From Candidatus Izemoplasmatales bacterium (lineage in GTDB: Bacteria; Bacillota_I; Bacilli_A; Izemoplasmatales; Hujiaoplasmataceae), in assembly GCA_050949045.1 (NCBI GenBank), contig JBMNEZ010000001.1, positions 96,001 through 160,000 on the forward strand: a stretch of 64,000 nucleotides of DNA, read 5' to 3'. Below the pieces are notes generated by a model. It searched no databases. It was not told the DNA's origin and saw only the letters and a program-made list of their open reading frames with translations. Below are positions 15,601-57,490 of this stretch, one piece after another. The translations under genes and the position numbers were made by a program. Positions within the stretch are counted from its first letter, which is position 1, and each line of letters opens with the position of its first letter.

Positions 15601-16867
15601 AGAATGGGGCTTCGACGGCTTCAATATTTGTGACGCTGCCGATCCTTGGAAAGACTTCTACACTCATGACATGAGTCTCCGCTCAGGCGGGACGATGTTC
15701 CTATGCGATTGGAGAGCATCCAAAGAATATACTCCCGGTGATAAAGGGAACCTTGTTCAACTTTATCCTACTGGTGTATATAACGTAACTGATAACAAAG
15801 TCTATGTTAGAGAAAACGGTCAAGTAAAAGATTCTCCTGTAACGGTAGAATCATACACCAGCTGGTATTGGCTGCGATATCAAGTAATGCGTTCACTGTT
15901 TGTGGAAGCAAACAGCAATATCGCCAATAACGGCCTTAAACTTGACAACTTCAAGGATGCTACCTTGGCTGATGGAGCACAAGCGGTGGCCTATACAGCT
16001 AATATTGGGCTTGAAGGCGCAGATGCTTCTATTAGTACTTACACAGTAACTAGCGGCGCATTACCCAAAGGCTTATCAATTTCTAACGCCGGTGCGGTTA
16101 CAGGCACTCCCACCGAAGCAGGCGAGTTCACATTTAAGGTTAAATTCGTAAACGGATACTGGATTACAAAAGAAGCTACTTTCAATTTAACTGTGACCCC
16201 TTGCTTTACGATTGGTAGCGAAACTGAATTGAACGCTTTAGAAGTTGGCGCTGCTTTTGAAGGCTATATTGAATCAGAAGTAATTAAGATTGATGATACC
16301 TATACTTCCATAACATATGAACTTGCTCAAGGAAGCGCACTGCCCGAAGGGCTTACACTTTCAAAAACCGACGGCTTGATTTCGGGTACGCCTACGGTTC
16401 CGGGAACTTATAGTGTTACGTTTAATATAACACCTAAAAAAGCATCATCCGGCGGTGGTGGCGGCGGCTTCCCATGGGGTCCACGTCCAGGCAGCAGTTC
16501 AACTGTTTACAATTACACGGTCACTTTCGTTGTAACCGGAGATCCAATTGTTGAACCTAGCGGTCCCTTCTTCAGAATTGTTGATGGATTTGTTGAATAT
16601 TCTGAAGATAACGAAACTTGGGTACAAGTAATTGAGGTATCCGAACTGCAAGGCGACAAGGGCGACAAGGGCGACAAGGGCGATAAAGGTGACAAGGGCG
16701 ACAAGGGCGATGCTGGCGCAGCTGGTCCTGCCGGTCCTGCCGGTCCTGCTGGAAAAGATGCAGAACCGGTAAGCGGATGCGGAAGCTCGCTAACCGGAAC
16801 CGGAATCCTCGTTACCGGATTGCTGTCTCTCGGAGTACTATTCTTAAAACGCAGGAAGTCTGATTAA
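12656..16867 (+). CDS. Large surface GH3 glycosidase (permuted domains) with two putative Ig domains, collagen-like linker and Gly-Cys/TM/basic tail
   Basis: Signal peptide; [75 protein letters not shown]; LPxGL..GTPT Ig motifs; GDK/GPA repeats; [15 protein letters not shown]. Confidence 0.9.
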   Translation: MRRTKRGLLRHAGTRIFSLFLCFSLLLLGAGSVYATVYNHHFYGEDWTWSPSAKSAEEAKANAIKVAEQIAAEGQVLLKNENSTLPLSGDEWLTVFSTTSTKDLASYISGIEAGGFKVHSTTSTDVSKYTPSDMRAHSSSDVAVIIMSGEAESKGDFFSPGPFGGGGGEGGSTASLVEPEDNKDAYGNTYKLPSGKDFVHRFSPMKKVGEETVAYKHSLQLQNKDEEIIKYAKDNFKTVIVLLQNDIPTEIGSLKIDPGIDAILLAGRLGNYGHEQIGYVLNGSVNPSGRTVDLWAWDHSGRPSWFNDGNTNNIFRNATQESESDVSNMGITSAFRVGEGSIYYERSEAYSKADDETYPYYKRRPHATGEITPHVFTVQYEEDIYTGYRYYETAATEVALGNYAAAGYGIDGEAFYYDSVIYPFGYGLSYTSFEWEVVSSDLSEWARVLASESSSINFQTGEITVKVKVTNVGLVPGKDVVEIYGHAPYYKNGVSKAEHVLVGFEKTGIIQPGKSQVVTVSVNVQDLASYDYLDANGNGNTGYELDKVADADSKGNPLHDSTGKYQLRLMKNSHEYGNDDAAEMTIDLASPSRDYFLKLDDFTGNSVDNLFSGKDINNTLGYDPGTGKTLVEEGKMTILTRADFAGTWPQAAGTTTGPSGEEKGWDLVRSDEYYTMISEFADYNGENWQEFYKIVNNVETIPAEITNEDKAGFAWSIDAAEFATLTTAKYTPEGGTEQTINWVQRDPAANLSELQESDDWLWFADMIKYEYNDGGIGTYMWTKFMNQLTYNEMVEWVTNGGRRTSAIDSVGKRAAEYVDSSIRMGGTNQISYGYNSVSSRTWNKELAKKRGICIGETALFDGKEAWYAPACDLHRSPFAGRNDEYWSEDGFFSGWMAGSVLAGTQSTGVICTIKHFALNESENMRQSLHTYLSEQTFRELYLPAFKICMQECGAQGVMTAYNCIGDMHASSAYNFLVGMTEKEWGFDGFNICDAADPWKDFYTHDMSLRSGGTMFLCDWRASKEYTPGDKGNLVQLYPTGVYNVTDNKVYVRENGQVKDSPVTVESYTSWYWLRYQVMRSLFVEANSNIANNGLKLDNFKDATLADGAQAVAYTANIGLEGADASISTYTVTSGALPKGLSISNAGAVTGTPTEAGEFTFKVKFVNGYWITKEATFNLTVTPCFTIGSETELNALEVGAAFEGYIESEVIKIDDTYTSITYELAQGSALPEGLTLSKTDGLISGTPTVPGTYSVTFNITPKKASSGGGGGGFPWGPRPGSSSTVYNYTVTFVVTGDPIVEPSGPFFRIVDGFVEYSEDNETWVQVIEVSELQGDKGDKGDKGDKGDKGDKGDAGAAGPAGPAGPAGKDAEPVSGCGSSLTGTGILVTGLLSLGVLFLKRRKSD

Positions 16868-17007
16868 CAAAAGAAACAAGCAATAAAGATTTTAAGACAA
16901 TAGAAAGAATCAATTAAGCAGGCGGATATGTTGGGATTATTCTTTAATGCGCGGTAAAATATCGTTGTGATAAAGAATATCCCAACATTATCCGTTATTG
17001 TCAAATA
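16682..17007 (+). repeat. ~326-bp inverted repeat copy A (GH3 tail + downstream stem-loop)
   Basis: Reverse complement of 34530-34856; two substitutions and one 1-bp indel seen by eye. Confidence 0.93.
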
Positions 17008-17094
17008 TTTGGAGTAAGTGTAAATATTGTTTGAAAAAGCATTATTATGTTTGTATGCGACTATGTAAACGACAAAATAAATGTGAGGAAATCT

Positions 17095-18525: not shown

Positions 18526-18535
18526 TTGAGGAGAA

Positions 18536-21484
18536 GTGCTAATGATTTTTAAACGCTTATTAGAAAAAAAACCATCGCGTTTTTGGTTTATATTCACGGT
18601 TATTATCAGCGTATTAATGATTGCAATCAATGCTGTCGCCATTTATTGGAGCGGTATAATCAGCATTGCATTACGCGGTGATATAGCGCACAAGGCGGAA
18701 AATGCCGAGGATGCAGTGGTGTATTACGAAAAAAGCACCTCAAGCAAGGATGAAGCTAATGCCCAAGCGCAAAGCATTACGCAAAGGATTGCCGAAGAGG
18801 GCTTTATTTTGTTGAAAAACGACAACGCCTTGCCTTTGAAAAAATCTGCGCAAGTGTCCGTCTTTGGCAAAAACTCTGTTAATCTCGTTTATGGCGGCTC
18901 GGGCTCGGGTGGTGGCGACGCTACGCTTCCAAAAAAGACGCTTTATGAAAGTCTTACATCACAGGGGATTGTTTTTAATCCAGTACTGAAAGCGTTTTAC
19001 GAGGATAACACTCTATCGGGACCCGGTAGAGAAAGTAATTCCGGCGACTTAGACAGTGGCGATACAGTCACTATTGGAACTGGAGAAACGCCACAAAGCA
19101 GTTATACCAACACTGTCAAGAACAGTTATGCAGATTATGCGGACGCGGCCATTGTCGTTTTTTCAAGAGTTGGCGGCGAAGGCTTTGATTTGCCTATGGT
19201 AGGCGCCAACGGCGCAAGGCATTATCTTGATTTAGATACAAATGAAAGAGACTTGCTTGAAAGTGTTTGTGCATCTGACTTTGAACATGTAATTGTTGTT
19301 CTCAACACTTTAAACATAATGGAAACAGGCTTTTTAAATGAATATGACGGAAAAATAGATGCCTGTATTTGGATTGGAGGACCAGGTTCAACAGGGATTA
19401 TGGCCTTGGGGAGAATACTTGACGGTACTGTTACTCCTTCAGGCCATACAACCAACACATGGCCCTATGATTTTAAAAAAGATCCTACTTGGAATAATTT
19501 TTCTGAAAGAGGAATATCAAAAGGTGACATCTATTTTAACACCGAAACGAACAAAAACACAGCGTATAACTACGTAAATTATGAAGAAGGAATTTATGTC
19601 GGTTATCGTTATTATGAGACGCGCGCTGCACAGGAACGTGAAAAAAACGGAAACGATAATTGGTATATAGAAAACGTTGCATTTCCATTCGGTTATGGGT
19701 TAAGTTACACCACTTTTAAATGGGAATTGACAAATAGTCAAAGCATAGATGGTGTTAAAATAAATAAGAATGGAAATTACTCAGTAACAGTCAATGTAAT
19801 TAATACAGGTTCTTATAAGGGCAAGGAAGTAGTTCAAATGTATGCAAAACTTCCTTATACAGCAAATGGTGTAGAGAAACCTTATGTGGTTTTGTGCGGT
19901 TATGCAAAAACAGATATGCTGTACCCTACCGCTGAAAAAGCAATTAATGCAGAAGAGGCAGCGGGAAATAAAAAGCCAAATTCCCAAAAAATCACGATCA
20001 CGTTTTCGCCTTATGATATCGCTTCTTACGATTACAGCAAAAAAAGCGGTCACGAAGGATACATAATTGAAAGTGGTGCTTATGAGCTCTTGTTGTGCAG
20101 CGATGCACACACAAGCAAGTTTTCTGTGCCGTTTAGTGTCGAAGATGACATTGTTTACGAAAACGATCCCATAACAAATACAAGAGTAGTCAACAGATAC
20201 ACCAATTGCGCAGACAGTGCTTTCAATTCGGATACGATGATTGCGGACTTCCAAATGAGCAGAAATGACTTATCTATCCTACCGGATGCGTATCAGGACG
20301 CCGACAGACAAGTTACAACTGAGTTTATCAACTTAATTGCAGACTTAACGCATAATAATCCAAACGCCGCCGGTATTACTGAAATGCCTAAACAAGGTAA
20401 GGTTGCAACAATGGATTTGGCGGGAGTGTTACAATATGACGCGGCAACCCAGACTTACTACGCAAACTACGATGACAATGCGAGTTGGGATGTTATTCTA
20501 GATGCTGTTTCTATCAACTCCATGCTAAATATGTATAACACCGCTGCATTTAAAACTAACAAGATCGATAACATTAACAAGCCTCAGACACTCGAATCCG
20601 ACGGACCTGTGGGATGGTGTAATTTCATTTCGCTTACTGATCCAACTTGGAAAGGAAACAATGTTTATACCTCACAGGTTGTTATGTCCGCAACATGGAA
20701 TGTCGATTTAATCGAGGAAATGGGCAAATGCGTAGGGGAAGAAGGCTTATGGGGCGCAGTTAACTCCGATGGTCGCCCTTACAGCGGCTGGTATGCGCCT
20801 GGAGTGAATATCCATCGCTCGCAATTTGGCGGTAGAAACTTTGAGTATTTTTCTGAAGATAGCTATTTGACAGGCACAATGGGCGCAGCGGAAATAAAAG
20901 GCTGCCAGTCAAAGGGCGTTTATTGCTATGTGAAGCATTTTGCGGTAAACGAACAGGAAACTCATCGAATGGGGGCCTGCAACTGGCTTACCGAGCAGGC
21001 TTTGCGTGAACTGTATCTAAAACCGTTTGAGATAGTGGTCAAGCAGGGAAAAACAAGAGCCATGATGTCCAGCTTTACACGTATAGGAACAAGATGGACA
21101 GGCGGAGATTATAGGCTTTTGACAGAGATATTACGTGACGAATGGGGATTTAGAGGCACAGTTATTTGCGATTACAATGCGACAAGCAATTTTATGAATT
21201 GTAGACAAATGGTATATGCAGGCGGAGATTTAAATCTTTGTTCCTCCATTAGTAAGCAATGGAATGACTTTGACAGTACATCTGCCGTAGATGTAACAAT
21301 GTTGAGAAACGCAACAAAAAATGTGCTCTATACTGTGGCCAACTCAAACGCTATGAATAGTCTAAGCTATTATTACACGCTCGCTACATGGAAGATTTGC
21401 CTTATTGTGGCAGATGTTTTGACTGTGTTGGGTCTTGCAGTATGGGGAATTCTAGCCATTCGCAAATCACGTAAAATGCTTTAA
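18536..21484 (+). CDS. Membrane-anchored GH3 beta-glycosidase (permuted domains, TM at both ends)
   Basis: RVGGEGFDL, YEEGIYVGYRYYET, SDGPVG, HRSQFGGRNFEYFSED, KHFAVNEQE, EWGFRGTVICD. Confidence 0.92.
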   Translation: MLMIFKRLLEKKPSRFWFIFTVIISVLMIAINAVAIYWSGIISIALRGDIAHKAENAEDAVVYYEKSTSSKDEANAQAQSITQRIAEEGFILLKNDNALPLKKSAQVSVFGKNSVNLVYGGSGSGGGDATLPKKTLYESLTSQGIVFNPVLKAFYEDNTLSGPGRESNSGDLDSGDTVTIGTGETPQSSYTNTVKNSYADYADAAIVVFSRVGGEGFDLPMVGANGARHYLDLDTNERDLLESVCASDFEHVIVVLNTLNIMETGFLNEYDGKIDACIWIGGPGSTGIMALGRILDGTVTPSGHTTNTWPYDFKKDPTWNNFSERGISKGDIYFNTETNKNTAYNYVNYEEGIYVGYRYYETRAAQEREKNGNDNWYIENVAFPFGYGLSYTTFKWELTNSQSIDGVKINKNGNYSVTVNVINTGSYKGKEVVQMYAKLPYTANGVEKPYVVLCGYAKTDMLYPTAEKAINAEEAAGNKKPNSQKITITFSPYDIASYDYSKKSGHEGYIIESGAYELLLCSDAHTSKFSVPFSVEDDIVYENDPITNTRVVNRYTNCADSAFNSDTMIADFQMSRNDLSILPDAYQDADRQVTTEFINLIADLTHNNPNAAGITEMPKQGKVATMDLAGVLQYDAATQTYYANYDDNASWDVILDAVSINSMLNMYNTAAFKTNKIDNINKPQTLESDGPVGWCNFISLTDPTWKGNNVYTSQVVMSATWNVDLIEEMGKCVGEEGLWGAVNSDGRPYSGWYAPGVNIHRSQFGGRNFEYFSEDSYLTGTMGAAEIKGCQSKGVYCYVKHFAVNEQETHRMGACNWLTEQALRELYLKPFEIVVKQGKTRAMMSSFTRIGTRWTGGDYRLLTEILRDEWGFRGTVICDYNATSNFMNCRQMVYAGGDLNLCSSISKQWNDFDSTSAVDVTMLRNATKNVLYTVANSNAMNSLSYYYTLATWKICLIVADVLTVLGLAVWGILAIRKSRKML

Positions 21485-21659
21485 TGATGACTAGTCAATA
21501 GGATAGCGACAAATCACTTGCGAAAGCATAGGGAATACAACTGTGTCATCAATAACCCAAGATTATGAAACATTATGCAATTAGAATATATGAACTGACA
21601 ATATTAAATAATTTTAATAATAGGTTATTTTCGTATTTCCATGCTTTTGATGAACTTAC

Positions 21660-21694
21660 ATGATGATAAAGCCCTCCCGATTAAGGAGGGCTTT
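21660..21694 (+). repeat. 35-bp direct repeat copy 2
   Basis: atgatgataaagccctcccgattaaggagggcttt. Confidence 0.85.
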
Positions 21695-22026
21695 ATGATA
21701 CAAAATTTACATTTTCATTGAATACTTTCGACACTACACATTATTGGATAATATACAAACAATACTACATAATCAATTCGAATACGTAAATATTAACCCT
21801 ATGTTGGAATAAGTTTTACTGGATTTGTATTGATAAATTTCTTTCAAAACGTCCGCAACACATATTATTCACTCAATAATATATTTAATCATGAACAATG
21901 TTTTTTATCTTGATTTGTATATCTGTTTGCTAAATTGAGCTATTTTTTAGATGGCAATACTTGTATACTGTTTTTTAATTACGTGCTATAATACAGTAAA
22001 CTTTTGAAACACTACTGGAGGTATTT

Positions 22027-23445: not shown

Positions 23446-23465
23446 TATACTGCAATTGATTAACA

Positions 23466-23500
23466 AAATCCGAGTGAAGTGTTTTCATTCGGATTTTTTT
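23466..23500. terminator. Terminator between convergent genes
   Basis: aaaatccgagtgaa...ttcattcggatttttt. Confidence 0.7.
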
Positions 23501-23613
23501 GATTTCAAGTGGTCGGAGTTGACGACCATTGCGAAAAGCGTGGATCACAAAGAATGGAGTCCGAAACTAAAAAAAGTCTGTGGAATGAACATCAACGGCC
23601 ACAGGCATTTTAT

Positions 23614-24957: not shown

Positions 24958-25761
24958 ATGGCAAACTTGATTAAACACAAGAAAATCTTGATAATTCTCA
25001 CATCATTATTCATTTTGGTGATCCTGGCGAGCCAATTTTTGCGATTGACGTTCTTTACCGATGATCTGACAAAGAAAATGGCCAATGATATTTCTATTAG
25101 GCTGGGCATGGGATTGATATTCTTGTTTATGATGTATTACATGGGGTATTGTCTTTTCAAAAAACCCGGGAAATCGTGGATACAATTACTTTTTGTTTTG
25201 ATTCCGGGTTTATTAATATCCATAAACAACTTTCCGATAAGCGCTTATTTGTCATCGCGAACCACTTTAACCGAGCCAATCCATACTGTCTTTTTTTATG
25301 CGGTTGAGTGTTTGGCAATCGGCTTTTTTGAAGAAACGGTTTTTCGAGGAGTTATTCTGTTGGTTTTGTTACAGAGGTTGCCGCAAACCAAGCGCGGAAG
25401 TTTCATGGCGATCATTGTTTCCTCGGCTCTTTTCGGCTTGACTCATCTTTTCAATTTGTTTGTTGGGGCGGCAGTTCCAGACACGTTGATTCAAGTGGGA
25501 TATTCTTTTTTGATGGGGGCTATGTGGAGTGTGATATATATTGCGACAGAAAACTTGCTGTTCCCCATCCTGCTTCATGCATCCTACAACTTTTTCGGAG
25601 AGGTGTTGTTTCGCCTGGGAACCGTATCAAACCGGTTTGATTTTCCGACCATACTGGTCACTTCCATTTTGGCAGTTTTGGCAATCATGGCATATTCGCT
25701 TGTTTTCTGTAAAATCAAACAAGAGGATCTTGCCAATATCGGCGCAAGCGATTCCCGGTAA
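24958..25761 (+). CDS. CPBP-family (type II CAAX/Abi) intramembrane glutamic endopeptidase
   Basis: EETVFRG, FGLTH, HASYN motifs; polytopic membrane protein. Confidence 0.9.
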   Translation: MANLIKHKKILIILTSLFILVILASQFLRLTFFTDDLTKKMANDISIRLGMGLIFLFMMYYMGYCLFKKPGKSWIQLLFVLIPGLLISINNFPISAYLSSRTTLTEPIHTVFFYAVECLAIGFFEETVFRGVILLVLLQRLPQTKRGSFMAIIVSSALFGLTHLFNLFVGAAVPDTLIQVGYSFLMGAMWSVIYIATENLLFPILLHASYNFFGEVLFRLGTVSNRFDFPTILVTSILAVLAIMAYSLVFCKIKQEDLANIGASDSR

Positions 25762-28730: not shown

Positions 28731-31700
28731 TTATGATTTAACCTTGAAAATGTTTTTTCTCTTATCGAGATCGCTCAATACGTACATGGCGGCGCTAATT
28801 ACAGTAAGAACAATGAATACAACTGTCAGCGCAGTTATTATGACTTTCCACCACACGGCAACAGGCTGTAGGCGTGTAAGGTTTGAATAACCATCCATGG
28901 AGGCACTGTAATTTGCCACAACGAAGAGCAACCGGTGCATGGATTCTCTGAGATTGATATTGAATGAGGGGCTGTTTCTCAAGTCGCTGGTGAAGCCGCT
29001 CAAAGTGCCTTTATCTAAGAAACAATCCGTTCCGTTCATGAAGCCGTCGTCATACACCATGAACAGCTTCCCGTTGGAACCGGCCATATCGGTAAGGGTG
29101 TACCCGTCGAAAGCCCACTCATCTCGAAGAATGTTCATCATAAGATTGTCGTTTGCACTTGTCCATAAACAGCCGGCACGATTAAATGATGTCATAATCG
29201 CATGAGAATTACCCATATCTGGACGAAGCGCATATTCCCAGGGCAACAGATATATTTCCCTTGCGGCCTGCTCATTCATCCAAATGCAGATGCCATTGCG
29301 ATTTGTCTCCTCGTCATTAAAGATGAAATGCTTTGGATGGGCGACAACGCCTTGTCGCTGCATTGCCAGAATTTCGTATACGGCGGCGATGCCGCTCAAG
29401 AATGGATCTTCGGAATAATATTCTGAAGCTCTCCCTCCGAATGCAACCCGATGCATATTCAATCCGGGAGCGTAAAGTCCGTGAAGATGTTTTTGCGATG
29501 GGTCGTGACCGCTTCGGCCATCTGCCGCAATCGCTTCGCCGACCTTATCGTAAATCTCCAAACTGAATGTTGATGCGATAATTCCTTCACAACTCATTGA
29601 AGAATATCCTTCAGCTGTGTTGCTGATGCCGTAAGGGCCGTCATCTTCATCGGTCATCGGTTTTGCCACGCTTGCAAGAGCAGGTGTAAAACCGTAACAG
29701 TTCGTCAGAGTAATAAACATGTCTTCCTGTGATATCTTATTTAAGAGCAGATCCCATTTAGGATCCGTATACGGCAATCCCGCCATCATCGCAAGGGTCA
29801 AGTTGGAACTCAAGTCATTGAAAGTAGGCATGACAGCGTTATTGTATTCAACGATGGTCTTGTGGCTTGTGATATCGTATTTTTCTTCCACCATGTTGGT
29901 CAAAGAAAGGGTCGTCACCCCCGAGGGCAGCGTGCCCAACCAATTATTGCGTGATACATAGACAACGTCACCGTTTTCGGCGGCCTCATTAGTAACACCG
30001 GAGAAGCGGTTGGGATCCATATAATCAAGTTGATTGGTAATCTTTGTTTCAACCGCAGTATCGCTGAGCGTATTGGGGGTTGATGCCGATTTTGCCGTGG
30101 ACTTGGAAAACACCTCGGAGTCAACGTTTGCTTGAGAAAGCACCAGTTTTACCAAATTGTCATCTCCGTCGGCGTCCATATTGCTGTTTGCTTTAGTATA
30201 ACCTTTTGCGGCCAAAATATTATTGACGGCATCGTGCGAGTCCTTCGCTACGGTGAGATAATAATCTCCTTCATTAAGAATGTATGTTTGTGCATTCTGT
30301 GAATCATACATTCTGAACTGCTCGAAGGCTACCCTCATCCGCTCCATATTCATTTTATCGGTTACTGTTGCGCTAAGAGTCTCACTCGCTCCGGGTTGAA
30401 GCAGGCTTGTTTTTCCAAAACCGACAAGTTCAACAGAAGGGACCTCAATCCCAAACATGCGTGCATAATCGGAATATGGTTTTTGCAGGTATATTTGCAC
30501 CACTTCTTTGCCGGCTTTGGCGCCGGTGTTTGTCACGGTGACGCTCACATTGAAGGCAGTGGTTTTATTGTTTTCATCCTTCTCCTCTGTGACAGTCAAG
30601 TCGCTGAATGCAAAATCGGTATACGACAAGCCATACCCAAAGGGATAAGCAACATCTTGATAATAATCGTATTCGCCCACGCCGGCAGTCACCATGACAT
30701 AGTCTTCATAGCGAGTCTCATAGTAACGGTAGCCTACATAGACGCCTTCTACATAAACGCCGTAGTACATTTGCGAACTATTTAGCTGTAACGCCTCTGA
30801 ATTTGCGTATTCTGAGGAAAAACCGTCGTTTTCTCGCCAATACATCGCTGCGGGAGAAGAAAAAGTATCCATTAAATAAGTGTCCGAAAGTTTGCCAGAA
30901 GGATTTATTTCTCCAATCAGCGCTTTTGCGACAGCATTCATACCGGTTGCTCCGGGAAGGCCTATCCATATCGCTGCGTCAATGTCATAGTTGTCGTCAA
31001 ATAGAAAATCACATTGAACGGTAACCGCTGAATTAATCAAAACGATGATTTTGTCGATCTCGCCTTTACTCTTTTTTTCAGCCAGTTGCTCTAAAATGCC
31101 AAGTTCGTTAGAAGTAAGCGTTAAATAACTACCGTCAATGCCGTCACTATCTTTCCAGGAAATGTCAACACCTTCCCCGCTTTCACGGGTGATAACGGCT
31201 ATGACCGTTCCGCCATGACTGGTATATTCATCGCTTATTCCTGCCAACTTGTATGTATTCCAAGAAGGTTCATCGGTTTTGAAAACGCCACCTTTGATAC
31301 CGCGTTTGGTCTGACCTTCACCGGTTGCCAAAAAGTTAAATATTTTGTCATTTACATTAAGATTGGTTTCTTCTTTAAGAGCTGTGTAAAGGTCAATAAG
31401 TTCACCTTGACGGCGAACCCCCGGGCCGTGTGTGGCATAGAAAATCTTACCGGCGCCGCTGATGGCAAAGGAAACATTTGAAGTTGGGTCGAGAGGCAGA
31501 GCGTTATTGTCGTTCTTTAATAGGACCAATCCCTCTGCTTGCACCTCTTCGTTAACGGCACGATAATACTCTTCGATATCCTCGGCGGTTTTAAAGAGCG
31601 GCCAACTGATGAATTTTTCAACTTCTCCCGCCTTAGGCTTTTCTTTGACTTCGATATAGTCTACCGTTCCCAAAAAAGAACTTATTTCGTTGTTAAACGG

Positions 31701-31805
31701 GACGATTGCGGCATTGACAACAAGCATCACCATCACAAGTGAGGCAAATGTGACAAATAATGTTTCCCATAGTTTCTTAATCAACAATTTTTTAAATGTT
31801 TTCAT
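28731..31805 (-). CDS. Membrane-anchored GH3 beta-glycosidase (module 2 partner; TM at both ends)
   Basis: EGLVLLKNDN, RESGEGVD, YVEGVYVGYRYYET, DDGPYG, HRVAFGGRASEYYSED, KHFIFN, EWAFDGYTLTD. Confidence 0.92.
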   Translation of the reverse strand: MKTFKKLLIKKLWETLFVTFASLVMVMLVVNAAIVPFNNEISSFLGTVDYIEVKEKPKAGEVEKFISWPLFKTAEDIEEYYRAVNEEVQAEGLVLLKNDNNALPLDPTSNVSFAISGAGKIFYATHGPGVRRQGELIDLYTALKEETNLNVNDKIFNFLATGEGQTKRGIKGGVFKTDEPSWNTYKLAGISDEYTSHGGTVIAVITRESGEGVDISWKDSDGIDGSYLTLTSNELGILEQLAEKKSKGEIDKIIVLINSAVTVQCDFLFDDNYDIDAAIWIGLPGATGMNAVAKALIGEINPSGKLSDTYLMDTFSSPAAMYWRENDGFSSEYANSEALQLNSSQMYYGVYVEGVYVGYRYYETRYEDYVMVTAGVGEYDYYQDVAYPFGYGLSYTDFAFSDLTVTEEKDENNKTTAFNVSVTVTNTGAKAGKEVVQIYLQKPYSDYARMFGIEVPSVELVGFGKTSLLQPGASETLSATVTDKMNMERMRVAFEQFRMYDSQNAQTYILNEGDYYLTVAKDSHDAVNNILAAKGYTKANSNMDADGDDNLVKLVLSQANVDSEVFSKSTAKSASTPNTLSDTAVETKITNQLDYMDPNRFSGVTNEAAENGDVVYVSRNNWLGTLPSGVTTLSLTNMVEEKYDITSHKTIVEYNNAVMPTFNDLSSNLTLAMMAGLPYTDPKWDLLLNKISQEDMFITLTNCYGFTPALASVAKPMTDEDDGPYGISNTAEGYSSMSCEGIIASTFSLEIYDKVGEAIAADGRSGHDPSQKHLHGLYAPGLNMHRVAFGGRASEYYSEDPFLSGIAAVYEILAMQRQGVVAHPKHFIFNDEETNRNGICIWMNEQAAREIYLLPWEYALRPDMGNSHAIMTSFNRAGCLWTSANDNLMMNILRDEWAFDGYTLTDMAGSNGKLFMVYDDGFMNGTDCFLDKGTLSGFTSDLRNSPSFNINLRESMHRLLFVVANYSASMDGYSNLTRLQPVAVWWKVIITALTVVFIVLTVISAAMYVLSDLDKRKNIFKVKS

Positions 31806-31806
31806 A

Positions 31807-32343
31807 TTAATCTCCCATTGCCCCGGCATCTGTTTGCTGATGGTTTTTCGCTTTATCAGTTTTGTAATAGCTGGATTTCTGAATCAAAGCAACAATCAAT
31901 GTGACTATTATCGCCACAAAGGTGCCTATCAGTTTGAAAAAATAACTGCTTGAAAGAACAGGATCCACAGGATCGCCCACAGTGCCCGATACGATTGGAT
32001 AAAGAATTGTGCCTATAAGCGAATATTCGGCGAGTATGCTCATAAAGAAACTGTATATCAGCGCGACAAAGGCGAAATACATGAGAAAACGTTTATAACT
32101 CAAGATATCTAAAATCATGGGGTTATTAACAAGAAAACTCTCGCCAACGCTTGCGCCGATGGCAATCATAATAAATATGACTGCCAAGATGTCCGCCGCC
32201 ACGACCTCGCGAGAAACGTTTCCGCCGTTAAATTCCGAAGCGCAGTTCAGTGCATACAAGAATAGTGCAACAACCGCAAGCACCAGCGCCAGAACGGATA
32301 GATAAAAACTCGTTTGTTTATAGAACATTTTGATTTTATTCAT
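31807..32343 (-). CDS. Hypothetical ~4-TM membrane protein
   Basis: Hydrophobic ORF with GGGAG RBS, tightly coupled to the downstream GH3. Confidence 0.75.
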   Translation of the reverse strand: MNKIKMFYKQTSFYLSVLALVLAVVALFLYALNCASEFNGGNVSREVVAADILAVIFIMIAIGASVGESFLVNNPMILDILSYKRFLMYFAFVALIYSFFMSILAEYSLIGTILYPIVSGTVGDPVDPVLSSSYFFKLIGTFVAIIVTLIVALIQKSSYYKTDKAKNHQQTDAGAMGD

Positions 32344-32399
32344 AGTTCTCTCCCTTACATAAGCTTTTTACATTAAGAGACTGTAAAGCAAATAACGGT

Positions 32400-34517: not shown

Positions 34518-34529
34518 TGCATACTCCTT

Positions 34530-34856
34530 TATTTGACAATTAACGGATAATGTTGGGATATTCTTTATCACAACGATATTTTACCGCGCATTAAAGAATA
34601 ATCCCAACATATCCGCCTGCTTAATTGATTCTTTCTATTGTCTTAAAATCTTTATTGCTTGTTTCTTTTGTTAATCAGACTTCCTGCGTTTTAAGAATAG
34701 TACTCCGAGAGACAGCAATCCGGTAACGAGGATTCCGGTTCCGGTTAGCGAGCTTCCGCATCCGCTTATCGGTTCTGCATCTTTTCCAGCAGGACCGGCA
34801 GGACCGGCAGGACCAGCTGCACCAGCATCGCCCTTGTCGCCCTTGTCACCTTTATC
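34530..34856 (-). repeat. ~326-bp inverted repeat copy B
   Basis: Reverse complement of 16682-17007. Confidence 0.93.
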
Positions 34857-37800: not shown

Positions 37801-39281
37801 AGATTGTATACTCCGCCTTCCAACTCAAAGCCCTTGAATCCGTTGCTATTCGCATCGGCATAATCATAAGAAGCCATATCTTGCAAATTAACATCGAGTT
37901 TCATAATCTGAAATTCGCCAGGATTGAGAAGATTTGTCTTTGCATAGGCAACCAGATTTACGGAAGCTTTTTCGATTTCTCCTCTTGTATAAGGAGCCTG
38001 TGAATAGATTTCCACTACTTCTTTGCCTGCCTCATCACCAGTATTCGTCACTTTGACGATCAGAGAAACCGTCTTAATCTTGGCAGGCGAGAATAATGAA
38101 GAACTGATATCCGCTTCATCAAGTTCACTGTGTGTGATCGACAAGATTTCCGTATTAAAGCTGGCATAAGACAAACCATAGCCGAATGGATAGACGACAT
38201 TGTCGGCATACCATGCGTCTGCCTGGGCTAAGCCGCCCGGCGAGCCGGCTTTACTCAATACGCCGTCGACATAATTCAGGTTTCCAGCCAGAATTTCCGC
38301 GTAAACGGTCTCATAATACTTGTATCCGATATAGATATCTTCGGAATAATCCACACCATGCAGAGAAATCGGGACCGGTTGGCTGCCGTCTTCTCTTAAA
38401 TATTTGTTGCTGCCAGCATCATTTTGAACGTTCGCAATGGAGTTGTACCAAGTTGGATCGAGCGAAAAGTCTTTTGGCCACACGTCAACGAGTTTGCCAG
38501 AGGGGTTCCACTCGCCGCTTAACAATTTTGGAATCGCCTTGATCCCATTTGCGCCGGGACGTCCGATATACATAATCGCATCCACTTTATTGTCATTATG
38601 AAGATTGTACATCTCCATTGGAGTGGATGTATTAAGAAGAACGACGACTTTGTCGCAGAGAGCCGCGGCCTTATCGATCATAGCAATTTCCTTTGCTGTA
38701 AGCATCAGGAAGTGTTTGAGATCGTTACCGTCTGAGTTTCTAGCCAAGCGTTTATGTTGCCAACCGCCGATGTTTTCTACTGCATCATTGGCAAGTTCGC
38801 TTGTTGCTACAGCAAGGTCTGATCCTTCACCGCCACCGCGTTTGAGAACCACAACTGCCACATCAGCGAATCCTTCAACATCTTTTGAGGCTGCCCCTGC
38901 AGCAGCATCCTCATTGATCAGAGTTGGATTCACCTCAAACCCATCGGCATCAAGCACGTCGATTACTTTATGGCTACCGCCCTGTAAAGAAGCTGCCGCA
39001 GCACCGAATACCGTTACGCCTTTGGCTTTGCTAAAAGGCAAGGCGTTATCTTTGTTCTTGAGCAGAACAGAGCCTTCTCCGGTAAGTTGAATATTCAATT
39101 CTGCAGCTGCGGCAGTAGCTTCGTCCTGCGTCTCATAGGTGGGAATCGCAATCCCGCCGTTGGCAGCGTAGGCACGAGAGCCGCTAAACAGGTATGCTGA
39201 TACCGCAGTCGCAAGCGCCAAAGTCAAAACCAGCATACATTTTCCAAGTATAAACCCGTTGTTTTTGCTTCTTCCTTTCAT
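34671..39281 (-). CDS. Large surface GH3 glycosidase with inserted small modules, Ig domain, collagen-like linker and Gly-Cys/TM/basic tail
   Basis: [58 protein letters not shown]; (GAKGDP)n; [15 protein letters not shown]. Confidence 0.9.
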
Positions 39282-50046: not shown

Positions 50047-50072
50047 TTGTACCTTCCTTTCCCTTGAAAATG

Positions 50073-50297: not shown

Positions 50298-50309
50298 TTG
50301 ACACCCTTT

Positions 50310-51683: not shown

Positions 51684-52046
51684 CTTCTGCCTCCTCTTTT
51701 GGGCCTTTTCAATAAAACGGATATCTACAAAAAGCATATCACAGTATCAAACTTTTACATAGTCGATTTTGTGAAATATGGAGTGTCGTTGCCTTGGTTC
51801 GAGTATTTTTTCATCACTTTTAACCTGTTAATTTAACTAATTCATGTAATCAATCAATGCTTGTCATATCAATTATAACAGAAAACTACAAACTATTCTC
51901 AAAACTCATTTATGAGTTTGCTGGACTTATTTATGGTCGTGTTATCCAAATTATTTTGTATTTTGTATCGCCATATTGGTTGTTAATACAAATCATGTAT
52001 GAATATTGACAGATTATGCCCTGTTAATTTTATTGCGGAATCATTG

Positions 52047-52086
52047 TGATATAATGAATTTAACGAAATAAAGAAAGCGTTTTACT
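52047..52086 (+). promoter_or_regulatory. Extended -10 plus cre/LacI-type operator upstream of module 3
   Basis: TGaTATAAT followed by AAGAAAGCGTTTTACT. Confidence 0.5.
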
Positions 52087-52291
52087 AACACAAAGCTATC
52101 ATTTTTATAAATTTTTTCTCTTTTCAATAACTTTAGAATAACGTTTGGAGAAGCGCGTTGTTGTTGACGGCTTTCTTCATATGAACTTAATATCTCTAAC
52201 GGTTTTATGAAACAAAATGGATCAAGGCAGATTTTCCATGCGTATATTAGGATGAAAATCCATAATATAAAAAATATATAAGGAGGAAAAC

Positions 52292-55200
52292 ATGAAAAGA
52301 TCGACGTTTTCAAAAATCGAAATGAGTACAAGACGGATTGCTCTTGTCGCAGTTATGCTTTTCACTGCGCTTTGTTTTGTATTCGTTTTGATGTCATCAT
52401 CTGCAGCGCAAGCCGAAGGCTTGGGTGGTACAGGCTATACAACAGCTTATTCCAGCCAAGAAGAAGTGTATGACGCTGCCAATCTGTTCAATGAACGGAT
52501 GGTTGAGGAAGGAATTGTTCTTCTAAAGAATGTTGACAATGCCCTTCCACTTGCTAAGGGCTCGATGATCAACGTGCTTGGCAAAAACTCTGCCAACATT
52601 GCGATCGGAGGAACCGGTTCAAGTACCGGATCAGGATCCGTAGAAGCCAGAAAGGCAATCAGCTTGTACCAAAGTTTGGCAAATGCGGAATTTGTACTCA
52701 ACCCTGCACTCGTAGCATTCTACGAGAACAACACATTATCCGGAACCGGAAGACGAGCTCCGAATATGGGTGCAAATCTTACGGGCTTGAGCACCGGAGA
52801 AACTCCTCCGGAAATGTATTCTGCGGAATTAAAAGCTACCTATGCTGATTATGATGATGCATCAATCGTCGTAATTACTCGTATTGGTGGTGAAGGTTAT
52901 GATCTCCCAACAACGATGCTAGCTAGTGGGCTACCAATGGCTGGATCTTTAGAAGGGGATCATTACTTAGAGCTTGACTTATATGAAAAAGCGATATTTG
53001 CTTCTTTGGAAGAGGATCCAAGCGTTAGCAAAGTTATCGTAATCGTCAATGCCAGCCAGCAAATGGAACTTGGTTTCTTGAATGATTCCGTTAATTACTC
53101 CAAAGTCAAAGCAGCGATTTGGGTCGGTGGACCTGGACAATCAGGCGTTGCCTCTATCGGAAGAATATTGAATGGCGACGTTAATCCGTCCGGACGTCTC
53201 GTTGATACTTTTGCCGCAGACTTCTCCAAAGACCCTGTGTGGTACAACTTTGGCAATTCTGGTGGCAGGCATACGAATGGCACTCTCGACGAAGAAGGCA
53301 ATTTCACCACTCCTAATGGATATCCCCGTTTCGTAAACTATGAAGAGGGAATCTACCTAGGCTATCGTTATTGGGAAACTGCCGGCTACGATAAAAACGA
53401 TAACTGGGCTTGGTATGACCAAAATGTTGTATTCCCGCTTGGCTATGGTTTGAGCTATACCTCGTTTAGTTGGGAACTCGTTGGCGAGCCAACCATTCCT
53501 ACCACTTTCACTGCGACCGCTGAAGTTGAAGTAACCGTAAAAGTTACCAATACAGGCTCTGTTGCAGGAAAAGATGTTGTTCAACTGTATTACACAGCTC
53601 CTTACTACAATGGTGGCATTGAAAAATCGTATGTTAGATTGGCCGACTTTGCCAAAACGCCACTGCTTGAACCAGACGCCTCTGCTAATGTTACAATGAA
53701 AGTTTCACTTAAGGACCTTGCATCATATGACTATAACGATGCCAACGGCAACGACTATAAGGGCTATGAACTTGAAGCTGGGAATTACGTTTTTAGAGTA
53801 TTGAAAAACGCCAATGCCCGTTCGGTTAACGGCGTTGCCGACTTCACGATGACTGTTCCTGAAGATAATGAAAAACCGGCAACTGCAGGCAAAACCGGAG
53901 TAATGTTTACACACGATGAAAAGACCGGCGCCTTAATCAAAAACCTGTTCGATGATGTATCGCAAAAAGCCATTAACGGTACACTTGAAGACAAAGCGAC
54001 CGAGGCTGTTAGAGACAGTGGCGGCTTCATGAATGTCATGACACGCGCCACAGAGAGTGGCGGTCTTGCCGGTACTATCCCAACAGACTATCCGAGCAAC
54101 GAAAAACGAACTGTTTCGGCGGCGTTCAGAAATTCTTATGCGACACCGTCCAATACAGCAACTCGTGACGCTGCCGACTTGGTCAGTCCATGGTACAAGG
54201 AAGAGTTTCCAACACAAGCCGCCAACGATCAGGGCGAAGTGACAGTCTTCTTAAAAGATTTGATTGGAAAAGATTTCGATGATCCTCTTTGGGACGCTTT
54301 CCTCAATCAGATGACATATTACGAAATGGCATATCTTATCGGTCACGGAGCTTTCCATACATACCCAATCGAAAGATTAGGAAAACCATGGTCTGTCGAA
54401 ATTGACGGACCGGTTGGATTGGTTCCAAGACAGGTAAACGGACCATTGATGGATATCAATAATCATGTATCATGCGTATATGCGACACAACCCGTAGTCG
54501 CAGCAACCTGGAACAAGGAATTGGTCAAAGAATATGGCCAAATGACTGGAGAAGAATCAATTTGGGGAAATACCAACTATGCATATTCAGGTATTTATGG
54601 CCCCGGATTGAACATTCACCGTTCACCGTTCTCAGGACGTAACTTCGAGTATTACAGTGAAGATGGTGTTTTATCAGGAAAAATGGCCGGAGCTTACTGC
54701 TTAGGAGCGTACGAGAAAGGCTTGTACACAATGATGAAACACTATGTGCTCAATGACCAAGAAACGAACCGAAACGGTATCCAAACTTGGGCAGATGAGC
54801 AGACAATGCGTGAAATCTACTTCTTGCCTTTTGAAAAAGCTATTAAAGATGGAAATTCAAGAGGAGCGATGGCTGCTTATAATAGTATTGGCAAGACCTG
54901 GACCGGTGCAAGCTATGCCTTGATGACCGACTTGACTCGTAATGAGTGGGGATTCGAGGGAATGATTATCACTGACTGGGGTTCATATTCAGCTACGACA
55001 AACAACTGGATGATTCGTGCCGGAACCGATTTGTTGCTTGGCGGAAGTAGGGAAGGCACTCTGATTTTTGAAGGAGCCGATCTCACGCCCACACATGCTT
55101 GGGCGCTCAGAAGAGCAACCAAAGCCATAATGTTCACCGTTGCCAACAGCAACGCAATGATACCGAGACTACAGTATGCTGCCGGAGCAGCTCCCAGTCC

Positions 55201-57490
55201 TTTCCGAACCGGGATTGAGTATTCGATGGATGCTTCCGGAGTCTCCGGAAACTATGATTTCGGCGAATTTGAAGTAACGTATTCAGCAGATGAGCGTTTG
55301 CCTGAAGGATTGGAAATCGATCCTGAGACTGGCCTCATAACTGGTATCATTGCGGCAAGCGGAGCCTCACAGTCCTACACGTTTACTGTCACCGGCAGTG
55401 TTCCTGCGGGTACAGCGCTTACCGATGCCGTTTCTCGAGAATTCACCATTAATCAGGCAAGCATCACAGAAATCCCCGCCTTGGCTAATGGCAGGGTCGG
55501 GGTACCATATTTCTCCGATGCAATTCAAATATCATTAAACTTGGAGATTGACCCAAGTGAAATCACATATCAGTTGGATCCGGGTCTAAGGCAAGGTTGG
55601 ACATGGATAAGACGTGGTTCAGCAGCGCTTCCTCAAGGACTAGTGATCAATAATGACGGAACGATTACCGGTACACCGACTCAGGCAATTACTAGAACGG
55701 TTACTTTCCTAGTTTCTGCGCCCGGTTTCGTAGACACATTGATTACTCGCACTATAACTATCTTGCCAGCAATTCCGGTGATCACATTTGGCGATGCAAT
55801 ATTACCGGCGGGAGAAGTGGGCTCTCAATACGAAGCACAACTCGTTGCCAGTGGCGCGGAGGGCATCACCTTTGCTTCAGAAAATCTCCCTGCAGGATTA
55901 ACGCTTGCCGCTAACGGCTTGATCTCTGGAACTCCAACAGTCGTAGGAACTTATCTCTTTGAAGTAACCGCTTCAGCGGAAGGCGCAACATCAACTGTTG
56001 CTTCAATCGCTCTTAACGTAGCCGAGGAAGCTGAAATAATCCTTCCTGCCATCGTATTCAACGACAGGAAGCTTGATGCTGGAAAAGTCGGTGTTGCATA
56101 CAGCGCGACTCTTACTGCTAGCGGAGCCGATGGCATCACCTTTGCTTCAGAAAATCTCCCTGCAGGGTTAACGCTTGCCGCTAACGGCTCGATCTCTGGC
56201 ACTCCAACTGAAGCCGGAACTTATCTCTTTAAAGTAATTGCTTCAGCGGAAGGAGCAACATCAACTGTTGCTTCAATCGTTCTTAGCGTAGCCGAGGAAG
56301 ATGAAGTAATCCTTCCTGTCATCGTATTCAGCGACAGGAAGCTCGACTCTGGAAAAGTCGGTGTTGCATACAGCGCGACTCTCACTGCTAGCGGAGCCAC
56401 AGGCATCACCTTTGCTTCAGAAAATCTCCCTGCAGGGTTAACGCTCGCCGCTAACGGAAAACTTTCTGGTACTCCGACTCAAGCTGGAACATACCTTATT
56501 ACAGTGACTGCTTCTGCAACTGGTGCGCAATCGGCAACTGCTTCAATCGTTCTTAGCGTAGCCGAGGAAGATGAAGTAATCCTTCCTATCATCGTATTCA
56601 GCGACAGGAAGCTCGACGCTGGAAAAGTCGGTGTTGCATACAGCGCGACTCTCACTGCTAGCGGAGCCACAGGCATCACCTTTGCTTCAGAAAATCTACC
56701 TGCAGGATTAACGCTCGCCGCTAACGGAAAACTTTCTGGTACTCCGACTCAAGCTGGAATATACCTTATTACAGTGACTGCTTCTGCAACGGGCGCGCAA
56801 TCGACAACTGCTTCAATCGTTCTTAGCGTAGCCGAGGAAGATGAAGTAATCCTTCCTGTCATCGTATTCAACGACAGGAAGCTCGATGCTGGAAAAGTCG
56901 GTGTTGCATACAACGCGACTCTCACTGCTAGTGGAGCCACAGGCATCACCTTTGCTTCAGAAAATCTCCCTGCAGGATTAACGCTCGCCGCTAACGGAAA
57001 ACTTTCTGGTACTCCGACTCAAGCTGGAACATACCTTATTACAGTGACTGCTTCTGCAACGGGCGCGCAATCGACAACTGCTTCAATCGTGCTTAGTGTT
57101 TCCCCCGCTGCTGCAACCGAGGCACCGGCAATTTCATTCAATAGTGCATTGTTGGCTTCTGGAACTGTAGGAACAGCATACAGCGCGACTCTCACTGCTA
57201 GCGGAGCCGAAGGCATCACCTTTGCCTCAAGCGACCTACCTGCCGGCTTGACTCTCAACGAAGACGGATCTATCTCTGGCACTCCGACTCAAGCTGGAAC
57301 ATACTTGTTCACAGTTACGGCCTCTGCTACTGGAGCACAATCGGCTACAGCATCAATTGCGATTCACATTGCATCAGTAGCCGCTCCGATAACTGGTTGC
57401 GCATCAGCTTTGACCGTCTCGACGATCATCATGACATTGTTGACGTCAATGGTAGCTGGAGTCTTCATCTTTATCAGGAAACGTCAATAA
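52292..57490 (+). CDS. Large surface GH3 glycosidase with ~8 putative Ig domains and Gly-Cys/TM/basic tail
   Basis: RIGGEGYDL, YEEGIYLGYRYWET, IDGPVG, HRSPFSGRNFEYYSED, EWGFEGMIITD; LPAGLTL..G.LSGTPT repeats; TGCASAL-TM-RKRQ. Confidence 0.92.
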   Translation: MKRSTFSKIEMSTRRIALVAVMLFTALCFVFVLMSSSAAQAEGLGGTGYTTAYSSQEEVYDAANLFNERMVEEGIVLLKNVDNALPLAKGSMINVLGKNSANIAIGGTGSSTGSGSVEARKAISLYQSLANAEFVLNPALVAFYENNTLSGTGRRAPNMGANLTGLSTGETPPEMYSAELKATYADYDDASIVVITRIGGEGYDLPTTMLASGLPMAGSLEGDHYLELDLYEKAIFASLEEDPSVSKVIVIVNASQQMELGFLNDSVNYSKVKAAIWVGGPGQSGVASIGRILNGDVNPSGRLVDTFAADFSKDPVWYNFGNSGGRHTNGTLDEEGNFTTPNGYPRFVNYEEGIYLGYRYWETAGYDKNDNWAWYDQNVVFPLGYGLSYTSFSWELVGEPTIPTTFTATAEVEVTVKVTNTGSVAGKDVVQLYYTAPYYNGGIEKSYVRLADFAKTPLLEPDASANVTMKVSLKDLASYDYNDANGNDYKGYELEAGNYVFRVLKNANARSVNGVADFTMTVPEDNEKPATAGKTGVMFTHDEKTGALIKNLFDDVSQKAINGTLEDKATEAVRDSGGFMNVMTRATESGGLAGTIPTDYPSNEKRTVSAAFRNSYATPSNTATRDAADLVSPWYKEEFPTQAANDQGEVTVFLKDLIGKDFDDPLWDAFLNQMTYYEMAYLIGHGAFHTYPIERLGKPWSVEIDGPVGLVPRQVNGPLMDINNHVSCVYATQPVVAATWNKELVKEYGQMTGEESIWGNTNYAYSGIYGPGLNIHRSPFSGRNFEYYSEDGVLSGKMAGAYCLGAYEKGLYTMMKHYVLNDQETNRNGIQTWADEQTMREIYFLPFEKAIKDGNSRGAMAAYNSIGKTWTGASYALMTDLTRNEWGFEGMIITDWGSYSATTNNWMIRAGTDLLLGGSREGTLIFEGADLTPTHAWALRRATKAIMFTVANSNAMIPRLQYAAGAAPSPFRTGIEYSMDASGVSGNYDFGEFEVTYSADERLPEGLEIDPETGLITGIIAASGASQSYTFTVTGSVPAGTALTDAVSREFTINQASITEIPALANGRVGVPYFSDAIQISLNLEIDPSEITYQLDPGLRQGWTWIRRGSAALPQGLVINNDGTITGTPTQAITRTVTFLVSAPGFVDTLITRTITILPAIPVITFGDAILPAGEVGSQYEAQLVASGAEGITFASENLPAGLTLAANGLISGTPTVVGTYLFEVTASAEGATSTVASIALNVAEEAEIILPAIVFNDRKLDAGKVGVAYSATLTASGADGITFASENLPAGLTLAANGSISGTPTEAGTYLFKVIASAEGATSTVASIVLSVAEEDEVILPVIVFSDRKLDSGKVGVAYSATLTASGATGITFASENLPAGLTLAANGKLSGTPTQAGTYLITVTASATGAQSATASIVLSVAEEDEVILPIIVFSDRKLDAGKVGVAYSATLTASGATGITFASENLPAGLTLAANGKLSGTPTQAGIYLITVTASATGAQSTTASIVLSVAEEDEVILPVIVFNDRKLDAGKVGVAYNATLTASGATGITFASENLPAGLTLAANGKLSGTPTQAGTYLITVTASATGAQSTTASIVLSVSPAAATEAPAISFNSALLASGTVGTAYSATLTASGAEGITFASSDLPAGLTLNEDGSISGTPTQAGTYLFTVTASATGAQSATASIAIHIASVAAPITGCASALTVSTIIMTLLTSMVAGVFIFIRKRQ
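55850..57350 (+). repeat. Tandem 270-bp (90-aa) Ig-domain repeats
   Basis: ttcaatcgttcttagcgtagccgaggaag recurs at 56272, 56542, 56812; central copies near-identical. Confidence 0.92.

Follow-up and report, generated by a model that had tools for sequence, protein, structure and literature searches.

The window analysed here, a stretch of 64,000 nucleotides from a Candidatus Izemoplasmatales bacterium (contig JBMNEZ010000001.1, positions 96,001 to 160,000), encodes three giant GH3 enzymes that each end in a three-part tail composed of a short motif with a Gly-Cys pair, a hydrophobic transmembrane (TM) helix and a cluster of basic residues. This tail works like MYXO-CTERM and three sister sorting signals (Synerg-CTERM, JDVT-CTERM and CGP-CTERM), yet it fits none of the curated models by which those signals are recognised. 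An earlier reading of the same DNA from its letters alone (hereafter the sequence-only reading) proposed an anchoring signal of this Cys-CTERM kind, a proposal now supported by unrelated carriers in related genomes and by co-occurring candidate enzymes. For the genome that holds the window (G000), the scheme we favour with moderate confidence, on the strength of sequence comparisons, is one in which a second, divergent Lgt would lipidate the tail cysteine and an Rce1-type protease would trim the helix.

Giant GH3 A (12656..16867, + strand; 1403 amino acids) comprises an N-terminal signal peptide, a permuted GH3 module, Ig repeats, a collagen-like spacer and the Cys tail; the permuted order in the scanned GH3s of these gene cassettes is C-domain, Fn3, N-domain. 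Its Gly-X-Y spacer (16652..16759, +; residues 1333-1368) matches Pfam Collagen at 24.5 bits, under the cut-off of 27.2, and leads into tail A (16763..16867, +), which consists of Ser-Gly-Cys (Cys codon 16778-16780), the hydrophobic helix and a KRRK cluster. Giant GH3 B (34671..39281, - strand; 1536 amino acids) has the same architecture with a longer collagen-like spacer at about 34779-34994, and its tail B (34671..34775, -; Cys codon 34758-34760) is a near-identical copy of tail A. Giant GH3 C (52292..57490, +; 1732 amino acids) matches He_PIG Ig domains eight times and lacks a collagen spacer; tail C (57383..57490, +), with Thr-Gly-Cys (Cys codon 57398-57400), a helix and an RKR cluster, is independent in sequence of tails A and B. 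The sequence-only reading had located all three tails correctly, on the right strands and in the right frames of the open reading frames of 1403, 1536 and 1732 amino acids, and had rightly reported that they contain no LPxTG. It was also right about the partner GH3s (18536..21484, +; 28731..31829, -; 59450..62431, +), all three of which end in a TM helix with basic residues and without Gly-Cys, and which serve as internal controls. Its description of tail C as independently diverged holds. Tails A and B are not independent of each other: their terminal 192 bp (16676-16867 and 34671-34862) show 97.9% identity, compared with about 29% at the protein level for the enzyme bodies. Because one was thus recently copied from the other, tails A and B count once, and the window holds two independent Cys tails, not three.

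A fourth Cys tail of the genome (G000:C1:1346902-1347006), on a GH3 at G000:C1:1342450-1347027, represents a third tail sequence and shares with the copied block of tails A and B a stretch of 93 bp at 89% identity that stops near the Cys. Tails are thus copied between distant paralogs, and near-identical tails on different GH3s are seen in three other genomes as well (G044, G046, G054). A tail profile run over the 1227 called open reading frames of G000 found no carrier beyond these four GH3 paralogs, which score 47-55 bits (all four belong to the training set) against 6.5 bits for the next best; one further protein, g1126486, has a Cys close to its C-terminal helix, yet no score with the profile. 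The scan of proteome and relatives that the sequence-only reading had suggested gives a divided answer, namely GH3 paralogs alone within G000 and unrelated carriers in relatives. In a fifth GH3 paralog (G000:C1:509189-513307) an N-terminal lipobox is followed by a collagen spacer and there is no C-terminal tail; as its sequence is read, the anchor has moved to the opposite end of the protein. The lipobox-type enzyme is the only giant GH3 seen in genome G005, in which the second Lgt was not found.

Conservation of the tail was surveyed among the best 120 of 7173 homologs of GH3 B. TM helices followed by basic residues end 93 of these 120 proteins (27 have no TM tail), and Gly-Cys stands just ahead of the helix in 67 of the 93. 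This exceeds chance, since equal-sized windows taken from protein bodies contain Gly-Cys in 83 of 5601 cases (1.5%). Conservation is incomplete, the other 26 TM tails being without the pair. Acholeplasmataceae, Clostridia, Ca. Coproplasma and Bacillales are among the source names of the listed homologs with the tail, and it is from these names that the link of the tail to Clostridia derives. In an alignment of 41 tails the Cys is found in all 41, Gly precedes it in 39, Thr or Ser occupies position -2 in 38 (Thr alone in 30) and the Cys lies 21-28 residues ahead of the first basic residue in 40. The motif P-x-[ST]-G-C-x-S-x-L given by the sequence-only reading was accordingly too narrow, only the Cys being invariant, and of the Gly-Cys pair that it took as invariant the Cys stands throughout and the Gly nearly so. 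All tails of G000 are lipobox-like ([LVI]-[ST]-G-C, with a branched aliphatic residue at -3 from the Cys), a likeness shown by none of 68 homolog tails and by only 1 of the 38 remaining tails in the alignment; the notion that the tail is in general a lipobox was rejected on the homolog count.

Of the 124 genomes of the order, 34 were matched by a first tail profile built from 14 tails and 44 by a later one built from 41 tails, with 4 hits in G000 and 1-5 per positive genome of the order. The order-level count is biased, because four seeds of the 14-tail profile and two of the 41-tail profile had been found beside the second Lgt. Among 18 carriers from relatives, a Pfam scan identified GH3 enzymes, GH13 pullulanases, PUD/Ig proteins, GHL10 and NAGPA proteins and left five unmatched; a group of proteins of 820-940 amino acids among the carriers has no Pfam match. 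At least five unrelated families of secreted proteins in relatives hence bear the motif, whose absence from such proteins would have spoken against a sorting signal, and the Cys is retained on unrelated proteins in tails merely 16-42% identical to tail A. Full-length carriers start with basic and hydrophobic N-termini (by eye). Homologs without the signal or with another anchor comprise the paralog with the N-terminal lipobox as well as GH3 enzymes and pullulanases whose TM tail is plain or that have no tail. A second Cys three or four residues past the first is present in several tails of pullulanases and NAGPA proteins (L136, L129, L125, L128), which recalls the two-Cys form of MYXO-CTERM.

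The distribution of the tail follows that of the second Lgt. After three order-level tail hits without Cys had been dropped, a Cys tail was counted in 39 of the 47 genomes with a second Lgt and in 2 of the 77 without it. An exact test within genera gave 39 observed against 28.2 expected over nine informative genera (P 5.5e-10), a value overstated by kinship and inflated too by the six profile seeds picked beside Lgt. Outside the order, 16 of the 349 other genomes of the class had tail hits; the 14 with Cys all fall among the 70 genomes that have a second Lgt, and the 2 without Cys, again dropped, among the 279 that do not. Extending the search to the phylum added no positive genome, most of the families retrieved being those already obtained at class level; G259 and G445 were left out of scoring.

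An ortholog control is provided by a surface pullulanase present in 91 of the 124 genomes of the order, for which the C-termini of 87 were read; those left out were G080 (contig break) and G083, G089 and G125 (weak matches near E 1e-101 to 1e-103). In genomes with the second Lgt, 18 of 28 TM tails of this enzyme have Gly-Cys, with 6 ends lacking a TM helix, whereas in genomes without it 42 of 47 TM tails are Cys-free, with 9 ends lacking the helix. The five other tails of the latter group show Gly-Cys (2), Ser-Cys (2) or a Cys only in an upstream repeat (1). One Gly-Cys exception, G120, holds a more distant Cys-type Lgt overlooked by the first query. Three loci of a single genus (L381, L384 and L401, in G116, G118 and G117) have Gly-Cys or Ser-Cys pullulanase tails with a longer charged spacer before the helix, which suggests a relic or a separate variant.

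The second Lgt gene adjoins tail genes in three settings (a maltose ABC cluster, a NAGPA-domain gene and the GH3 island) and lies far from them in G047, G039 and G392; because the genes are unlinked in these three genomes, the association is not just a matter of co-transfer. In G000 this candidate lipid transferase is encoded at G000:C1:168355-169200 (- strand), 8.4 kb beyond the end of the window and at the end of the same sugar island. It is one of two Lgt genes, the other being canonical, and it bears the signature G-R-I-G-C-F-L-A-G-C-C-Y-G, an instance of G-R-x-G-C-F-x-A-G-C-C-[YF]-G that defines the class referred to here as Cys-type. The protein scores 115 bits with PF01790 (cut-off 24.9), its model matches the fold of E. 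coli Lgt (5AZB, E 4e-8), and in alignment with the latter Y26, R143, G154, R239, E243 and R246 are kept; of the six residues that E. coli Lgt cannot do without (Y26, H103, R143, N146, G154 and R239), four are thus retained. Across 120 aligned Cys-type Lgts (that of G000 and 119 close homologs) the three signature cysteines are invariant, position N146 is Cys in 120 of 120, and H103 is replaced by Leu, Ile or Met. Lgts with N146C and E151C are known as distant homologs, and the available part of the source that describes them assigns them no special role (PMC13251419).

Several features of the genes around and within these Lgt families may be recorded here. In the housekeeping Lgt of G000 (G000:C1:1290409-1291650) the Lgt domain is preceded by a long N-terminal extension that includes a lipobox-like Cys; Lgts of family f1 are mostly of 410-450 amino acids and those of family f2 of about 300. 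Directly downstream of the second Lgt are two near-identical cytoplasmic GH3 genes (by eye; G000:C1:159594-162119 and 165673-168123), 6 kb apart, which flank a two-component pair and a glycosyltransferase, also named by eye. In family f19 the four loci read (L246-L249) place the Cys-type Lgt in a conserved housekeeping setting, near genes resembling those for enolase and an rRNA methyltransferase (by eye), with no protease.

The candidate cognate protease is encoded in the window (24958..25761, +) as a protein of 267 amino acids of the CPBP/Rce1-type of glutamic intramembrane proteases, assigned by its PF02517 match (66.4 bits, cut-off 22.4), its motifs and its fold. The motifs are E125-E126-x-x-F-R130, H163 and H207-x-x-Y-N211, together with an NNFP motif specific to the subfamily, and EExxFR, H163 and HxxYN are conserved across 15 orthologs. 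The best fold match is MmRce1 (4CAD), with a probability of 0.99 but an E-value of 0.04, and a search of solved structures with the protease profile gave no match. The models of known myxosortases score far below their cut-offs (Mrt_core NF040914 23 bits, cut-off 100; MrtS 23.6, cut-off 130; MrtJ 28, cut-off 75), and neither MrtA nor any LnsB model is among the NCBIfam matches of this protein. Orthologs occur in 25 of the 124 genomes of the order; every one of the 25 also has the second Lgt, and in 19 the two genes are no more than 200 bp apart. Among 80 metagenome loci of the protease, 48 include Lgt and 43 have it as the immediate neighbour; 22 of the 80 have less than 500 bp upstream or no scored protease reading frame. 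In the genus of G000 the protease is found inside or beside the tail-bearing GH3 cassettes and not beside Lgt. Scoring of 8000 longer candidates turned up no Lgt-CPBP fusion, a negative result of little weight. The other CPBP protein of G000 (575826-576932, fused to FxLYD) does not match the myxosortase core NF040914; it was rejected as the cognate enzyme because a similar type of 360-400 amino acids occurs with and without the tail, although proteins of this type could act as stand-ins where the cognate protease is missing.

Taken in order, the favoured scheme would begin with export of the enzyme by the Sec pathway, presumably directed by its N-terminal signal peptide. The C-terminal helix would then stop transfer with its Lys/Arg cluster inside, a topology that would leave Gly-Cys at the outer face of the sole membrane. 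There the second Lgt would lipidate the Cys, most likely with a diacylglyceryl group from phosphatidylglycerol, a step that we infer from co-occurrence, gene order and conserved active-site residues. Where present, the Rce1-type protease (24958-25761) would cut after the lipidated Cys and free the helix, as suggested by the analogy with MrtX and by gene coupling; in the accessible part of a study on Myxococcus, cleavage of TraA by MrtX requires the Cys, and lipidation is proposed to be the work of an Lgt-like transferase (PMC11980579). The outcome would be a large sugar-degrading enzyme anchored at its C-terminal end through a collagen-like or Ig stalk. In genomes without the protease the helix is probably retained or else cut by another protease.

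A number of observations weigh against this scheme. As to the transferase, the second Lgt of G000 has Leu for H103, Cys for N146 and Cys for E151 (E. coli numbering), and the E. coli enzyme depends on two of these positions, H103 and N146, according to the part of the source available (PMC13251419); moreover, in G139 the Cys-type Lgt is the only Lgt found. As to its association with the tail, 56 of the 70 second-Lgt genomes outside the order have no tail match at E 1e-4. A looser search of 10 of those 56, confined to genomes carrying a Cys-type Lgt, recovered true tails in 3 and none in 7, and in family f19 none in any of the five Cys-type-Lgt genomes checked. Five tail-bearing genomes (G080, G100 and G116-G118; 86-92% complete) show the canonical Lgt only, and G043 keeps both enzymes with a pullulanase tail (L166, G043:C1:289926-290027) that has Phe in place of the Cys. 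As to the protease, it lies 46.6 kb from the second Lgt in G000, and 20 genomes of the family of G000 have tail and second Lgt and no protease ortholog (best scores of at most 76 bits in these 20 against at least 317 for orthologs; intermediate CPBP matches of 53-76 bits occur in G019, G027, G031, G076 and G086). In one of them, G018 (single contig, 97% complete), the sole PF02517 gene is of the common 364-amino-acid type. Since the cognate protease is missing from these 20 genomes, cleavage would be optional or performed by another enzyme, and the claim that the tail is cleaved is weaker than the claim that it is lipidated.

The same 20 genomes speak for an alternative that we regard as a minor one, in which lipidation of the Cys by the second Lgt is followed by no cleavage and the helix is kept as a double anchor. 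The presence of the tail goes closely with that of Lgt (39 of 41 tail genomes) and much less so with that of the protease, and in the accessible part of the published work some uncleaved protein is still displayed by M. xanthus that lacks functional mrtX (PMC11980579). The CPBP protein would then have another role, such as further acylation in the manner of LnsB or turnover of the helix, for which NF041768, a CPBP family of NCBIfam named as a lipoprotein N-acylation protein, offers a precedent. Against this reading, the protease has no LnsB model among its matches, its catalytic motifs are intact in all 15 orthologs, it was in no case seen without the second Lgt (25 of 25), and in the genus of G000 it sits in or next to the cassettes whose enzymes bear the tail.

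It is improbable that the housekeeping Lgt lipidates the tail while the second Lgt serves the N-terminal lipoproteins of the sugar island and merely travels along. Such a division of labour would agree with the lipobox-like tails of G000, the N-terminal lipoprotein in every GH3 cassette, the five tail-bearing genomes with a canonical Lgt only and the tail-free Cys-type Lgts of family f19; MrtX also processes TraA in E. coli with ordinary Lgt alone (PMC11980579, in the part available), and a Leptospira Lgt has N146C (PMC13251419, likewise). Outside G000, however, the lipobox likeness all but vanishes (0 of 68 homolog tails and 1 of 38 other aligned tails), and the co-occurrence persists where the genes are unlinked. 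Nor can the housekeeping enzyme explain why 42 of 47 pullulanase tails are Cys-free in genomes without the second Lgt, because a PF01790 gene is present in all 61 genomes searched.

Least probable, and quite unlikely in our judgement, is a plain membrane anchor whose unmodified Cys pairs enzyme dimers by disulfides or was inherited with a copied tail module: visible copying of tails between paralogs can inflate conservation, the same enzymes use plain TM tails in many genomes, some tails have the second Cys already mentioned and two G000 paralogs have collagen-like stalks, but the Cys is kept in tails that differ widely in sequence on unrelated proteins, and its presence mirrors that of a lipid-transferase homolog, both inside single genera and in the separate sample from outside the order.

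Beyond the lipidation-and-trimming scheme for G000, a broader reading may be put forward tentatively, as one that we consider possible although the odds do not favour it: Cys-type Lgts would be a dedicated class of transferases for substrates of reverse topology, with the target Cys ahead of a C-terminal helix, and would form, with an optional Rce1-type protease, a complete second lipoprotein pathway of single-membrane and wall-less bacteria; they would also supply the missing lipidating step of other Cys-CTERM systems, MYXO-CTERM among them. Their own conserved cysteines would possibly take part in catalysis.

The known systems used for comparison were MYXO-CTERM (TIGR03901 and TIGR03382, with MrtX, MrtC and MrtP; Haft preprint 10.1101/2023.06.07.544157 and PMC11980579, each in its available part), Synerg-CTERM (TIGR04564, MrtS), JDVT-CTERM (NF033191, MrtJ) and CGP-CTERM (TIGR04288, MrtA). 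The comparison with existing CTERM models that the sequence-only reading had called for places the tail outside all of them. Tail A reaches 13.1 bits with TIGR03382 (cut-off 15.85), TIGR03901 and TIGR03382 match only 2 and 1 of the 41 tails at E up to 1, and the full-length proteins of the window do not match the MYXO-CTERM models; the Synerg-, JDVT- and CGP-CTERM models match at most 1 of 41 tails each (none of the three is among the 25 families listed out of 34). The LPXTG model TIGR01167 gives borderline scores of 15.2-15.5 and 16.8 bits (cut-off 15.9) from the TM and basic part, and proteins with the Cys tail may therefore be mislabelled as LPXTG proteins.

With MYXO-CTERM the tail has in common the three-part layout, the invariant Cys, often as Gly-Cys, the many unrelated secreted clients, a protease of CPBP/Rce1-type and a proposal that an Lgt-like enzyme performs lipidation. 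It differs in that the Izemoplasmatales host has one membrane and no wall, and hence no type II secretion step; in that the tail of the window scores below the cut-off, has Lys besides Arg in the basic cluster and usually a single Cys; and in that a second Lgt is coupled by gene order to the protease, which the accessible parts of the sources do not report for myxobacteria, while the protease is missing in 20 tail-bearing genomes. Synerg-, JDVT- and CGP-CTERM likewise have a motif of small residues that ends in Cys right before the TM helix and basic cluster, and a CPBP partner, and JDVT-CTERM clients adjoin their protease as do the GH3 cassettes in the genus of G000. These three signals occur in other phyla, and no invariant Pro, Asp-Pro or Cys-Gly-Pro column is present in the 41 tails; no partner Lgt is described for them in the available part of the Haft preprint (10.1101/2023.06.07.544157).

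Ordinary lipoproteins also present a Cys at the outer membrane face by means of a helix and depend on an Lgt-fold enzyme and a membrane protease, and one G000 paralog takes this N-terminal route instead of the tail. The tail differs from them by its reversed topology, with the Cys before a C-terminal helix, by the general lack of a lipobox, by an Lgt with Cys at N146 and E151 and Leu or Ile at H103, and by a protease of the CPBP family instead of LspA. The LPXTG/sortase A system shares the three-part layout; the tails have no LPxTG, and no sortase or peptidoglycan genes were found in G000. GlyGly-CTERM with rhombosortase and PEP- and PGF-CTERM with exosortase or archaeosortase are similar in having a motif that abuts the helix, a membrane-embedded enzyme and a lipid anchor on the new C-terminus, but their signals lack Cys, and G000 has no detectable exosortase and one rhomboid far from the clients. 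In the portions available, the Haft preprint (10.1101/2023.06.07.544157) describes no Bacillota system and leaves the enzyme that modifies the Cys unknown, while PMC11980579 shows Cys-dependent cleavage, proposes Lgt as the transferase and does not mention Firmicutes or Bacillota; PMC13721041 does not mention CTERM signals in the part available. A literature search, for which subscription journals were largely outside the scope, found no description of the tail or of the Lgt-CPBP pair.

Genome G000, an Izemoplasmatales genome, is a single contig of 1.36 Mb with 98.3% completeness. The sequence-only reading had suggested a lineage that may be without a wall for sortase anchoring, and the gene inventory agrees: no sortase, penicillin-binding protein transpeptidase, MurA, Mur ligase or exosortase was found in this 98%-complete contig. 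The sole EPSP-synthase match lies in the context of an aromatic-synthesis operon and was read as AroA, not MurA, and the sole Mur-ligase match sits after valS and was read as FolC. Anchoring of the tail proteins by sortase, exosortase or peptidoglycan was rejected on the same inventory, and the single rhomboid gene, distant from the clients, was set aside as a processing partner. A cultured member of the Izemoplasmatales has no cell wall, according to the available part of its description (PMC10470597).

The giant GH3s belong to five copies of one cassette in G000, each composed of a giant GH3, an N-terminal lipoprotein and a partner GH3 (window 12656-21484, 28731-39281 and 52292-62431; G000:C1:509189-518029 and 1342450-1351901). 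Two of the cassette lipoproteins have InlB-type repeats and one (57631-58797) has no Pfam match; the partner GH3s have helices at both N- and C-terminus. A membrane protein of 178 amino acids and four helices (window 31807-32343), without Pfam or NCBIfam match, lies between lipoprotein and partner GH3, and a gene for 143 amino acids at G000:C1:1348498-1348929 occupies the same place in its cassette. A promoter/terminator scan gave no usable signal, with 52 sites compared with 39.7 +/- 7.0 in shuffles.

In the published Cys-CTERM systems the protease is known or predicted and the lipid transferase is unidentified; the second Lgt is a testable candidate for it, and natural controls exist in the orthologs with and without Cys, the N-terminally anchored paralog and the genomes with and without protease. 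The tail would point to a class of lipoproteins invisible to N-terminal predictors. If the proposal is true, the C-terminal lipid anchor would be the mirror image of the ordinary bacterial lipoprotein, and a widespread class of divergent Lgts, now annotated as ordinary Lgt, would acquire a function. It would also account for the surface display of polysaccharide-degrading enzymes of 1,000-1,700 residues by free-living bacteria that have no wall and for which sortase is not an option.

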